From Octopus vulgaris (taxonomy: Eukaryota), in contig OX597820.1 in assembly GCA_951406725.2 (NCBI GenBank), forward strand, positions 112,778,001-112,842,000: 64,000 nucleotides of DNA, in the 5' to 3' direction. Both the position numbers and the translations under genes were made by a program. Below the pieces are notes generated by a model that was not told the origin of the DNA, ran no database searches, and saw only the letters and a program-made list of their open reading frames with translations. Of this stretch, positions 13,371 to 49,653 are shown in pieces. Within the stretch, counting starts at the first letter, position 1, and every line of letters starts with the position of its first letter.

Positions 13371-14641
13371 TGAACAATATGATGCAGAGAACCAAATAAT
13401 TCTAGTAGAGTAGTTGCTTGATGATGAACATTCTTACACAAGTGGTTGTTGTAGGGTGAACATTCTTACATAGTGAACTGAACAGCTATGTTATAGAGAA
13501 CTAGTGAATTAAATACTTGATTCAAAGTGAACAGAACAATTGTTTTAGTGAACCAAACAGTTAAATATTCCACTGATAAGTTAATGTCAATTCATAAACT
13601 GACATTAAATTTTCTGCCTTCTAATTTGATTTTCATATTCTACTTCTCCATAAATTTGCTGTGTGACATTGTAACTGCATCACGGTCAATCCATTGCCAC
13701 CACCAACACCACACCGACATTATTATCACTATAACTGCTACTTGTACCACAGTAATAGTAACAACAACAACAGCAGCAGCATCACCACCACTACCACCAC
13801 CACCACCCCTACCACCATTGCCACTGTTATTACAACAGTTCATTTCTCATATGTCTAAGAAGATTAGAAGTGATTAGGGCTAGCATATTTGGCTGACTTC
13901 TAAAGCTATTGCCTCACATTTAATTCTCCTTGCCTGCCTCTTCTCATTATCAAACCAATTTACTGATATCTATACTCTTACATACAACTGGTAAAAACTT
14001 CATCTGAAACCAACCAGTGTCAAACCTAAGAAGCTGAAAGCCATCTTGAATAAGCCTGCTCTCTCTTTCTCTCTCTCTCTCTCACACACACACACACTAT
14101 ATATATATATATACATACATATGACAATAGTGGATCCTGCAAACATAATAAATACACAGGTAATTAAAGAAATAGAAATGAATATCTATATATATGTATA
14201 TGTGTATATATATGTATATGTATATGTGTATATATGTGTGTATATATGTATATATATGTATATGTATATGTATGTATATATATATATATGTATATGTATA
14301 TTCTTTTTTTTTTTTTTTTTTTTTCTCGATTAGATTTATTATTATTATTACTAATATTGTTGTTATACATACATACAAGCATATGTAATGATAATAATGG
14401 GTGGATGTAAACACATGAATAAAATTAGAACAAAAGCAACAACAACAAAAACAAAATACAAATTACAAGAATGTATATAACCAGAAGATACAAATATTAC
14501 AGGCATCCCCCCACACACACACACTAGATAAACATAGACGCACATAGAGATATAAGCATGTGCAAATGAAGACATACAATAGAAATACAAAATGGCTGAC
14601 GGTTAGTAAGGAGAGACACAAGTAAGTGAGAAGAAAACAAA

Positions 14642-14686
14642 GGACCACTGATGCGGTCACAGGAGTGTGACGAAAGAACTTTGGCC
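14642..14686 (+). ncRNA. Minimal type-I hammerhead-like motif (A9C, degenerate)
   Basis: gg(a)cca-CTGATGC-g-gtcac(aggagt)gtgac-GAAA-gaac-T-T-tggcc. Confidence 0.65.
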
Positions 14687-14861
14687 GAAATAAGATTAAG
14701 ATTAATGTAAAAAATAAATATCACTGAAGCAAAATAACACCAAATATATAGTGCGTGTGTTTTTATTGGCTAAACTGGCAATATGACCATTCCAAAATAT
14801 AACAATATCTGTTTCAACACACGACTTCACATAAAAAATCTTGCACAACAAATATTTAAAC

Positions 14862-14917
<56 letters not shown>

Positions 14918-16905: not shown

Positions 16906-17439
16906 AAAATGTATTCCTTTTCTTTGCTAGTTTCAGCTTAAGAACTGTTATCATGCTGAGGTGCCACTGTATGATGAGTTTCTGTACAGATTCCATCTCT
17001 AATGACAAGATATTGGTTATCCCAAGTCTCCCAGTAGAAGGCACTTGTTGAAGGTGCTACTGAGAGGGATTATAACTGGAATCGCATGGTTCTGTGTAGT
17101 TGTGAAGTGAGCTCCTTAATCTCCTAGATATGCTATCAAATAGATATCACTAATTATAGTGCTTTGTCCTGTTTTGGAACCCTATATCCTTAACCTAGAC
17201 AAAATACACATTGAAGAAACTACTTCCTTCTCAGAGGTAACAAATGTGTCAAATGTACTGAGTCTTTACAACACAACAGATTATAATTATTTTATCACAG
17301 ACTATTACTTCCAACAACAGAAAGGGTTTTCCTAGCAATGAAAAATATATCTCCAGTAAACATGATTCTTTTTATCTGATGTCTTTAATCCTTTAGCATT
17401 CACATTATTCTGTCAAAAGTAATGCTTATTTATTCATAT

Positions 17440-17579
17440 TACGGAGATGTACTTGCATAGCAAGTGACCTGATCTGAGATCGTGTGCTGGAACGAAAACA
17501 GTTTCAGCATGGAAGGTGTTTATAAGCCATTTAAGAAACACACAAAAACCATTAGATTCACTTCAGCATTTAAATTTAA
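17440..17579 (-). mobile_element. Truncated second copy of the G3-C8 hammerhead element (3' part only)
   Basis: Reverse-complement homolog of about 48544-48682 (tacggagatgtacttgcatagcaagtga...). Confidence 0.85.
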
Positions 17580-20157: not shown

Positions 20158-21304
20158 ATCTCCCTTAAATTATACCTGGCAATCTTAAAGAAAACTGAAG
20201 TATACACAATGAGATCTTGGGACATGTCTGAAGTGGAAAAAGAAACAACATGGTGTGGTCATGGTTGGAGCATTATAGTGTTGTCCCGGAGCTAAACAAT
20301 AGCTGCAGTAGTTAACATATATTTTCTATCTTAATGTAGATTCAACACTGCATTTGTCCTTATATTTTAATCTTTCAAGTCCGAAACCACTTCTGAATTA
20401 ATTTTTTCCTTTTACCATTTATTCCAACATAGATATTTGCCAACACCAATTCCTATTCTACTCAGGGTACATCATCCACCCACAATATATACACATTAGT
20501 AGAGTCATCTTTCCTGTATATATTTATATACCCTTTTGATACTCTGTTGCTTTCTTCACTTGCACTTAATTCCTCAATATTTTCCACAAAGAATATGTTC
20601 TCAAATAAAAAACCATATTCTTTGTGGAAAATAGCGATTTGACGTCTATATCTAGCATGTTGACCGTCCACTTTTAATTGTCAGTCCTTTAAATTTTGTA
20701 TATATATACACACACACACAAATATATATATATATATAATTTGCATCTGTTTGCTGCTTATGCTGACAAAAATATGCAATATGGTAGCTTTCCAAACATC
20801 TAATCCAGTGTCACCTCAAGTTTTTAAGTCCAAGGTTTGTACATCTAGTCTGGTGCATTGCTAATCAGAGATACCCCTTAATGTTGATTTCACCAGAACC
20901 TGCAAGGGCCATGACCACAGCCCTTCCTCCATACCAACCCAGTGATATCATCCACATCACTGTGAACCTTTTCTTTGTAAAAGTATAGTAAACACACACA
21001 CTGGCTTCTGTCCACCAAATCCACTCCCAAGGTCTGGGTTTGGCCTAGGGCTGTTGTAGAAATCATTATGGGAAGTGAACTACTCAACTACACAACCATA
21101 AATGCCAATATTAATATGGGATGTGGAGTGAGCCAGTATCTAGATGACAATTGTATTTACAGAATTTTTCTCCGTTTCAACTCCAGAAGCTCATCTCCTT
21201 ATTACATGCTGGTCTTATTAATCCTATTCAGTTTAATCTAGAAACAGTATTTTGGTTTCTATACTCTATCCTTTTTCTTCAAATGTAAGTTATGCACATA
21301 TCAT

Positions 21305-21422
21305 TTATATACCGTATCACGTTGAAAGCACCGGTTCTCGTCTGATCACCGAAGTTAAGCAACGTCGAGCCTAGTCAGTACTTAGATGGGTGACCGCATG
21401 GGAAACCTAGGTGCAGTAAGCA
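21305..21422 (+). pseudogene. 5S rRNA-derived sequence forming the head of a composite SINE
   Basis: atcacgttgaaagcaccggttctcgtctgatcaccgaagttaagcaacgtcgagcctagtcagtacttagatgggtgaccgcatgggaaacctaggtgcagtaagc is near full-length 5S with A/IE/C boxes; no oligo-T terminator follows. Confidence 0.92.
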
Positions 21423-47303: not shown

Positions 47304-48371
47304 CTCAAAATAAGCAACAAGAATAACTTCGGATCTTTGGTACGATCATTTCACAGAGAAGGTAGATATATAGACAAAGATGTGGATTTAAATTTTAAGA
47401 ACATTTAAGGTAGTGGAGTTTATCAACCCCAGTTGAACCATCCAACCCATGCGAGCTTGGAAAACGGACGTTAAACGATGATGATGATGATGATGATGAG
47501 AATGTGGTACTCCAGCATGGCCACAGCTTTGAGCTGAAACCAATAAAAGATAAAAGATATATATATATATATGCAGTATCTCACAGAATTATGTACACCC
47601 CTAAAAATTTTCAGTAAAATTGCAAAACGAAATTTATACTGTATAAAATATATTATACATGCTAACATTACAAAGCAATAAACATTTTCAAAGATATGAA
47701 TGAAATATTAAGTTTCAAACATCACAAAAATATGTACACCCTAAAGGAAATTTGCTATATTCAATACTTTATCTACTTTTTTAACTAAATTCAGATATTG
47801 TTGATAATTTCAATTCTAATGAATTATTTCTCTTGGCATTTTTGCACCAGTCATTGTTATTGCATCTGCAGGAATTCTGATTTTTGTACCATGGTGACAA
47901 TCTTCTTCACTGTGATTAAAATGGCACCAAAAGAAAAGAATTGTCTGAAGATTTGAAGAAAATTATTTTTAATTTGCACAAGAGTAGTTTAGGATACAAG
48001 TTAATTAGCAAACGAATACATATTAGCGTAAACACATTTGCTGAAGTAATTCAGAAGCACAAAGCTACTGGACGGCTGAGCAATGAACGTCATCTAGGTC
48101 ATGCTTCTGTCTTAACTGTGCATGATATTTGCCACATCCAATGTTATGGGATGGACAACAGGCATCGCACCACTTCATCTTTGGCCCAAGAAGCGTCTTC
48201 TGTTAGTGGAAAGAGTGTATCCACCCAAATAATTAGTTGAAGTTTGAACCAATGTGGTCTTCATGGATGCATTCCTCATAGGAAGCCTCTCCTCACTACC
48301 AGGCATAAAAATCTTTTACTGAAATCTATGTGAGTAAGGGGAAGGAGTTTTAGAATGAAATTCTTTTTTCT

Positions 48372-48681
48372 AAGCCATTTAAGAAACACACAAAAGCCGT
48401 TCGATTCACTTCAACATTTAAGTTTAATTTGTCAAAATATTTTCGTCGCTATAAGACCGCGACCTGTTCACTGACAAAAATCCGTGCTGCATTTGTCAGT
48501 GAACAGGTCGCGGTCTTATAGCGACGAAAATATTTTGACAAATTAAACTTAAATGTTGAAGTGAATCGAACGGCTTTTGTGTGTTTCTTAAATGGCTTAC
48601 AAACACCTTCCACGCTGCAATTGTTTTTGTTCCAGCACACGATCTCAGATCAAATCACTTGCTATGCAAGTACATCTCCGT
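48372..48681 (+). mobile_element. Small palindromic hammerhead-carrying retroelement inserted in the Tc1 transposase, 13-bp TSD
   Basis: Perfect 108-bp arms (48371-48478 and 48492-48599), 13-nt loop, unique tail of about 80 bp; aattcttttttct is duplicated at 48359-48371 and 48682-48694. Confidence 0.92.
48491..48543 (+). ncRNA. Minimal hammerhead motif with G3-C8 core swap (mirror copy on minus strand, 48428-48478)
   Basis: atttgtca-GTGAACA-g-gtcgc(ggtcttata)gcgac-GAAA-atat-T-T-tgacaaat. Confidence 0.8.
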
Positions 48682-49653
48682 AATTCTTTTTTCTGACGAG
48701 ACTAAAATCAACTTGTTTGGATCAGATGATATTAAACGAATATGGCGATGACCAGGTGAAGATAATAGCGCCAAATGTACTGTGCCTACCACGAAACACA
48801 GTGGCAGAAGTGTCATGCTTTGAAGATGCATGAGTACGGCTGGTGTGGGAGGACTCACCTTTATTGAGAGAACAATGGACTCAAGGCTTTATTGTGACAT
48901 CCTGCAGAAAGCAATGTTGGAAAGCATCAAAGGACAAGGAAGACATTCCATGATCCAACACAATAACGACCCTAAACACACTTCGAAGACGACAACTAAG
49001 TTTTTATCAGATAAAAAGTTAAAGGTATTGCCTTGGTCTACCATGTCACCTGATTTAAACCCAACTGAACATCTGTGGAGTGTTTTGAAAAGGAAGGTTG
49101 AGGAGAAAAAAACCCGCAATGTAACACAGTTGAAAGACATCATTCAGGATGTCAATGGAAGTTGATTTTATCAGTTATATGCTGAAATTTAGTCAACTCT
49201 ATGCCCAGAAGACTTAATGCAGTCATTGAAGACAAGGGCAGTCACACCTAATATTGAATATAGCAAATAATCCATTAGGGTGGACATATTTTTATATCAT
49301 TTGAAAATAAATATTTTGTTCATAGCTTTGAAAATGTCTATTGTTTTGTGTTCCAAATTTGTATAATGTTTGCATGTATAATATATCTTAGTATAAATTT
49401 TGTTTGATTTCCTTCGATAGTATCAGAGTAAGGGCAATTTTATTGAAATTCTTTAGGGGTTCACATATTTTTGTGAGATACTGTATATATATGAATTAAT
49501 ATAAACAGCTAGGTGCAATGTGATAGCATAAAGGAAAAATTCAATTGTCATTAAGTGTGACTAAGGATGCTGAAGCACCTACATTGCTAGAAATAAGAGT
49601 TAAAATACTCTTAAATCTGCACGAGGAGTGCAAATATATACACATATACTGAC

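Follow-up and report, generated by a model that had tools for sequence, protein, structure and literature searches.

Head-to-head ends of a Penelope-like element in Octopus vulgaris and the G3-C8 core pair of their hammerhead motifs

A decayed Tc1/mariner transposon of Octopus vulgaris is interrupted by a short palindrome, each arm of which carries a motif resembling a minimal hammerhead ribozyme, with the core pair G3-C8 in place of the consensus C3-G8. The locus lies in a 64-kb stretch of DNA that was analyzed as a whole (the window), and it raises the question of what kind of element inserts in this form, how its two arms were made, and whether the exchanged core pair reflects selection for a folded ribozyme, as a preliminary description of the DNA had proposed. 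The reading preferred here, held at a probability of about 0.7, is that the palindrome represents two short copies of the end of a Penelope-like element with an endonuclease (EN+ PLE), inserted head-to-head and likely produced by two target-primed events, and that the core swap likely keeps the hammerhead fold and is likely not needed for each jump.

The insertion and its Penelope-like source

Comparison within the window sequence places the 310-bp insert between identical 13-mers at 48359-48371 and 48682-48694, and excision of the element with one target-site duplication (TSD) restores the frame NEILFSDETKINLFGSD of the decayed Tc1 transposase, as expected from the earlier claim of a 13-bp TSD splitting the ILFSDE motif. 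The Pfam domains HTH_SB and DDE_3 were matched on the flanks of the insertion; in contigs of public sequencing runs, other Tc1 copies run uninterrupted across the insertion site, and a loose end occurs at 48682. The arms at 48371-48478 and 48492-48599 are, as had been stated, perfectly complementary (108/108). The 13 nt at 48479-48491, previously taken as a spacer, are the reverse complement of the family 5′ leader and belong to the left arm, which therefore reaches 48491, making the right arm the slightly truncated one. The left arm, ending at unit position 108, is shorter than is typical for the family. The features are as follows.

47574..49483 (+): Tc1/mariner transposon, decayed and bounded by terminal inverted repeats, which serves only as the insertion target
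48359..48371 (+): left TSD, 13 bp, within the ILFSD codons of the Tc1 transposase
48372..48491 (-): short inverted arm, comprising the 13-nt leader, hammerhead and pLTR (unit -12 to about 108)
48428..48478 (-): left-arm G3-C8 minimal type I hammerhead motif, from the hammerhead scan
48492..48681 (+): long arm, comprising the pLTR end and tail (unit 1-190)
48492..48542 (+): right-arm G3-C8 minimal type I hammerhead motif (G3 at 48499, C8 at 48504, extra G after A9)
48592..48681 (+): opening 30 codons of the PLE RT-GIY-YIG ORF
48627..48681 (+): approximate "tail" (unit 136-190), confined to one arm
48682..48694 (+): right TSD
17438..17579 (-): older copy consisting of one arm (unit 52-190) and lacking the hammerhead
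14117..14874 (+): 5′-truncated copy of a sister PLE family, with a hammerhead at 14642-14686

The first 5 nt of the right TSD match the next 5 nt of the element's ORF. The copy at 17438-17579, already noticed as a second, truncated one, was confirmed with 91% identity over 139 nt. A 5S rRNA copy (Rfam, 90 bits) at 21303-21422 on the forward strand stands isolated in the window.

A search of the 2.8-Gb genome with an 18-mer at the ORF start returned 12,541 exact matches (control 1), and a core pattern in which positions 3, 7 and 8 could vary returned 7,244 (control 0); the nearest copies of the window element are 99% identical, so that the young, dispersed family suggested earlier is supported. 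The autonomous partner whose existence had been raised was also found. None was present in the flanks of the 30 best short copies, and an abundant 781-aa PLE detected with a GIY-YIG profile was rejected, having no similarity to the unit; one longer copy led upstream, via variably 5′-truncated copies, to an RT and a GIY-YIG domain. The unit with its G3-C8 motif lies about 1 kb beyond the stop codon at each of the 10 loci retrieved for the closest RT class. Locus L166 holds a 1025-aa open frame with the motifs RYVDD and TDKSG and a C-terminal Pfam GIY-YIG domain (915-1005) with two Cys inside and two His after it (CCHH); Pfam RVT_1 gave no match on this frame, and the RT motifs were taken from the alignment. 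Locus L169 is a pLTR-ORF-pLTR tandem with an ORF interrupted by one stop and one frameshift; an ATG at unit position 101 opens this ORF, the last 90 nt of the unit are its codons 1-30, and the long arm of the window insertion is 94-95% identical to each end of the tandem. Because the unit reads on into an RT and GIY-YIG ORF in longer copies, the element is, judged from its sequence, the pLTR and tail of an EN+ PLE. The family has the single RT and GIY-YIG ORF, the tandem-derived pLTRs and the ORF start within the pLTR and tail that mark such elements, together with the inverted 5′-truncated copy, one-ended tail and variable TSD.

The family protein (about 1,100 aa, with a Cys linker) is tentatively called Nematis-like, by its motifs and a published description (PMC11167929). 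Its Cys linker is short, and it shares 23% identity with the long-linker 781-aa PLE resident in the same genome. The latter, abundant and young (L091-L100, e.g. L096:981-5800), combines its RT-GIY-YIG frame with an overlapping upstream frame of 479 aa and inserts in (TA)n; a hammerhead scan of its pLTR found none. A sister family with about 56% RT identity, a homologous ORF start and intact 1,312-aa frames encodes a protein almost identical to one named from Octopus vulgaris, and a metagenome scan for relatives found only 2. The sister-family stub at 14117-14874 (+) has C3-G8, C instead of the conserved A9, and U17. The sister-family ORF (L176:2262-6197) bears an asparagine-rich insert of about 200 aa in its N-terminal part, reminiscent of the N-rich inserts known from rotifer Penelopes (PMC3846280).

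Among 79 consecutive loci at the end of one chromosome, 47 are head-to-head, 31 single and 1 a partial direct repeat, with no tandem array of the unit. Once 5 duplicated insertions had been dropped from the 79-locus set, 40 of 43 head-to-head pairs combined an arm that stops at 183-190 with another that stops at 140 or less; among the 30 top matches, 4 duplicates were likewise left out. Arms terminate at either of two constant points, about 130-137 or 190, each just before AATT in the template. In the 60 head-to-head loci formed by the 79-locus set and the top matches, a direct repeat in non-TA sequence was found at 27 (12-14 bp in 17 of these), 23 lie within TA runs and 10 have no direct repeat; targets are AT-rich, with TSDs of 12-14 bp typical. 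PLE insertions are known as an inverted 5′-truncated copy with a one-sided tail (PMC8557442, PMC3846280). The head-to-head palindrome is thus the family norm and the published PLE pattern, an ordinary inverted-pLTR arrangement; both element and arrangement are of a known kind, and the palindrome itself is ordinary PLE biology.

Adineta Pen2a is similarly described with an inverted 5′ pLTR, a head-to-head junction and a tail on one arm (PMC3846280; scheme in PMC8557442), and its ORF begins within the pLTR and tail, which carry the opening codons, its TSD encloses the whole unit and its targets are AT-rich and (TA)n (PMC3846280). By comparison, the octopus arms measure just 110-205 nt in most copies and are piled at one 5′ end, the tail is about 55 nt against 30-40 in Pen2a, TSDs are mostly 12-14 bp, and copies number in the thousands.

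A 5.2-kb tandem duplication contains four copies (L002, L004-L006), and in three of these an additional partial arm lies inside the copy. Should the head-to-head share of the 79-locus sample, about 60%, apply throughout, the genome would hold thousands of near-perfect hairpins of 50-135 bp, which, when transcribed through, would be possible substrates for A-to-I editing or Dicer. An old arm (L278:582-722) has 6 A-to-G changes among 14 substitutions, the maximum in the sample; this excess could reflect a retrocopy of edited RNA, or chance.

The hammerhead motif and its core pair

On both strands, the motif reads stem I (7 bp)-GUGAACA-G-stem II (5 bp)-GAAA-AUAU-UU-stem I, and a minimal hammerhead scan with any Watson-Crick 3-8 pair and A9 recovered only these two motifs in the window, in agreement with the report of one hammerhead-homologous motif in each arm. 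The layout is that of a type I hammerhead, including U4, G5, A6, A9, G12, A13, A14, the A15.1-U16.1 pair, H17 and a stem III of 2 bp; the consensus C3 and G8 are absent, and a Watson-Crick 3-8 pair is retained. The predicted cut site of the right-arm motif follows U17 at 48535. Rfam hammerhead models gave no match at the gathering score or at E<=10. Metazoan PLE minimal type I hammerheads are described with the same extra base between positions 9 and 10.1, the same G10.1-C11.1 pair, a tiny palindromic stem III suiting dimers and a location in the pLTR, and the octopus motif departs from them in its G3-C8 pair and in a cleavage triplet ending in U (PMC4209133).

G3-C8 is present in 6,609 of the 7,244 core-pattern matches. 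The anticipated conservation of G3 and C8 in other copies was therefore seen, but it is uninformative on selection, since what the copies of a young transposon share reflects their common descent. In the sister family and older relatives, this frame carries C3-G8 (1,894 matches, against 18 for the reversed pattern), and a metagenome relative with 41% identity has a canonical core after its ORF, its stems assigned by eye. Because these homologous families keep C3-G8, G3-C8 is a genuine double swap relative to them, as the preliminary description had held, but a single event. Across 18 aligned sequences, the 3-8 pair is C-G in 15, G-C in 2 and mispaired in 1; pairing in stem II reaches 95.6%; positions 15.2 and 16.2 form G-C in 6, G-U in 6, A-U in 3 and other in 3; both-sided changes occur at pairs 3-8 and 15.2-16.2 and in inner stem I; and outer stem I is only 55% paired without bulges. 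These sequences are related, and most were chosen with a pattern in which the core and the ends of stem II are set, which makes the covariation partly circular; as read here, the alignment is evidence of homology and of a fold that has been kept, but does not amount to a series of independent events.

Folding calculations gave pairing probabilities of 0.9-1.0 for stems I and II in a single arm or in the 5′ 205 nt of a tandem copy. Within the palindrome these probabilities are 0.00 on both strands, and the predicted hairpin reaches -197 kcal/mol, against -15. The idea of two hammerheads acting as a working pair is not supported by these values, and the paired motifs are predicted to be a by-product of the arrangement, inert at this locus.

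Among natural core covariations, U3-A8 is on record (PMC4209133, PMC3088659), and G3-C8 is mentioned as an engineered variant (PMC3884650). An engineered C3G/G8C double mutant of a PLE hammerhead was described as partly active (PMC11167929), and PLE minimal hammerheads are described as cleaving weakly and as dimers (PMC4209133). No natural G3-C8 hammerhead was found in the part of the literature that was covered, and no cephalopod PLE ribozymes were found in literature listings; the natural G3-C8 variant is probably unreported so far. The swap likely keeps the hammerhead fold, and measurable cleavage of the G3-C8 RNA, as a dimer or with protein, is judged slightly more likely than not.

Arm ends and templates

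The 5′ starts of 117 arms fall at -21 to -7 in 50 cases, at -6 to +11 in 23 and farther upstream in 2, and the modal start is the A of AGATGCAGC. Genome-wide, the base preceding AGATGCAGC is G in 809 matches and A, C or T in 1,196; where it is not G, it is A in 8 of the first 100, corresponding to about 96 A of 1,196 in an AT-rich genome. In contexts extending farther upstream, this base is C or T in 34/34 and G in 0/34; in contexts stopping there, it is G in 18/31. An extra G at the 5′ junctions of full-length L1 insertions has been ascribed to the cap (PMC11702581). As the extra G marks capped L1 insertions, transcription likely starts, with a cap, at the shared 5′ stop of the octopus copies, which lies 15 nt upstream of stem I; for Penelope, an internal promoter in the pLTR has been described (PMC2377424). 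The sequence just upstream of the leader has a branch-point-like and an acceptor-like element and resembles a 3′ splice site. No splice joint was found in contigs of 15 public runs presumed to be RNA, which carry no end or strand information, and no common first exon was found in the short copies; splicing was discarded as the origin of the common 5′ end, since copies differ in the bases that precede the extra G.

A cluster of arm starts at 45-54 comprises 11 of the 117 arms against 3.6 expected (Poisson p=0.0014 against 0.36/nt, for BLAST-defined ends and a single interval chosen around the cut site), and a further cluster lies at 67-73. Only 1 start falls at the cut site itself, and the 45-54 cluster was not accepted as proof of cleavage, since it peaks at 50-52, at the 3′ foot of stem I; it fits an RT pause or AT-rich microhomology. 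Most cDNAs of the 117 arms extend through the predicted cut site.

In vitro, a PLE protein has been described to cut at ATT and extend both strands, to start internally at two sites, within the first codons of the ORF, and to use uncut RNA (PMC11167929). The Anolis Poseidon element PAc resembles the octopus family in its two internal RT start sites in the 5′ part of the ORF, its cleavage at ATT with extension of both strands and its hammerhead adjoining the start codon (PMC11167929). The octopus start sites lie at AATT matching the target, whereas those of PAc are described as non-homologous, and the G3-C8 swap is natural in the octopus but engineered in PAc (C3G/G8C, partly active) (PMC11167929). 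The octopus protein also differs from that of PAc in its Cys linker and length of about 1,100 aa.

The target-primed retrotransposition proposed earlier is supported, which leaves the origin of the inverted arm. In the rotifer Penelope model, this arm would arise by self-priming or fold-back on one template, and self-priming on an antisense template has been argued for (PMC3846280). The identity of the arms in the window and small palindromes at some junctions are in keeping with that model, and the shared loop class of the arms in 22 of 35 two-arm loci fits fold-back copying and two templates equally well; at one locus (L285), a rare stem I variant is common to both arms. The arms differ in loop class at 13/35 loci, and in 6 of the 35 loci with both loops, two loop-II haplotypes, separated by two substitutions and an indel, are joined. 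Since the mixed-haplotype loci L009, L010, L279 and L301 lie within unique-sequence TSDs, two RNAs primed at two nicks are favored over self-priming, although ectopic gene conversion could have mixed or homogenized arms. Self-priming also leaves aside that each arm has its own fixed 3′ end and that the sense 5′ end carries a cap-like G, and it is considered quite unlikely. Far less probable is a separate, non-autonomous, retrozyme-like element with two cooperating back-to-back hammerheads. Short copies, with their common 5′ end, are indeed far more numerous than long ones, and non-LTR retrozymes are likewise described as short, non-coding, PLE-derived units with type I hammerheads (bioRxiv 10.64898/2026.07.22.740005). 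Those units form tandem arrays, whereas the octopus copies are single or head-to-head, with only the one partial direct repeat among 79 loci, and are contiguous with the RT-EN ORF of an autonomous element in longer copies; with both motifs also predicted to be locked in a long hairpin, the retrozyme-like reading is largely refuted.

Selection on the core and the meaning of the copies

The motif may alternatively be a dead relic or a non-catalytic structure, such as an RT pause or a protein-binding hairpin, drift having fixed G3-C8 in a master copy that proved successful. This is thought rather unlikely, and the variant copies bear on it in both directions. A G8 pattern gave 248 genome matches, with G3 in 92 of the first 100; the resulting figure of about 228 mispaired G3-G8 copies compares with 20 expected from decay (range 7-44) at the C-to-G rate of other columns (6/1,965). 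Among 28 G3-G8 loci (30 G8 loci minus 2 with C3-G8), the oldest loop class accounts for 10, against 9/75 arms (p=0.01), and the youngest for 0, against 23/75 (p=0.0003). Partner arms of G3-G8 arms have C8 in 7/11 and G8 in 4/11. Given the older loop classes and the G8 partner arms, G3-G8 was probably present in source RNAs, though these sources could be back-mutations. In the sister family, C9 was found in 21/21 motifs from 10 long loci; its older relatives have A9 and C17, and both young families have U17. Because G3-G8 copies transposed and the active sister family lacks A9, an intact core seems dispensable for transposition; with U17 in both young families, cDNAs that mostly pass the cut site and hammerhead mutants described as without effect on PLE insertion in vitro (PMC11167929), this speaks for a relic. 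Against a relic stand the nine core positions kept (U4, G5, A6, A9, G12, A13, A14, A15.1 and U16.1), along with three stems, while the RT diverged to about 56%, the second change that restores an exact Watson-Crick pair, and the absence of G3-G8 from the youngest class. Of the earlier proposal, the kept fold is retained as likely, and selection for a folded ribozyme is not supported as stated, being weakened by the transposed G3-G8 copies and the A9-to-C change of the sister. A path from C3-G8 through G3-G8 to G3-C8 under weak selection is inferred, its order taken from subfamily age classes and not from a tree.

Under the preferred reading of two target-primed events, the element's protein would nick both target strands, and each 3′ end would prime cDNA synthesis, beginning at either internal start site of a sense RNA that is capped and uncut. 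The two cDNAs would proceed, through the uncut hammerhead, to the RNA 5′ end about 200 nt away and would then be joined head to head. The ribozyme would act only in single-arm or tandem source copies, weakly, and probably in dimeric form or aided by the element's protein. The swap would have passed through mispaired G3-G8 copies that could still transpose, with pairing restored later. The more ambitious combination of a natural, active G3-C8 hammerhead carried by thousands of copies, a G3-G8 intermediate preserved in older subfamilies and inverted repeats made from two capped, uncut sense RNAs that a dimeric enzyme primes at both nicks is put forward tentatively, at somewhat less than even chances.

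If true, the octopus family would provide a natural instance of a core swap otherwise found solely in engineered form, and its intermediate could still be read from genomic copies. Compensatory evolution in a catalytic core would then be open to stepwise assay with the natural C3-G8, G3-G8 and G3-C8 forms and the C9 sister. With thousands of short two-armed insertions, one genome can test the origin of inverted pLTRs, by self-priming or from two templates, and the same insertions make the bearing of the hammerhead on PLE transposition testable.
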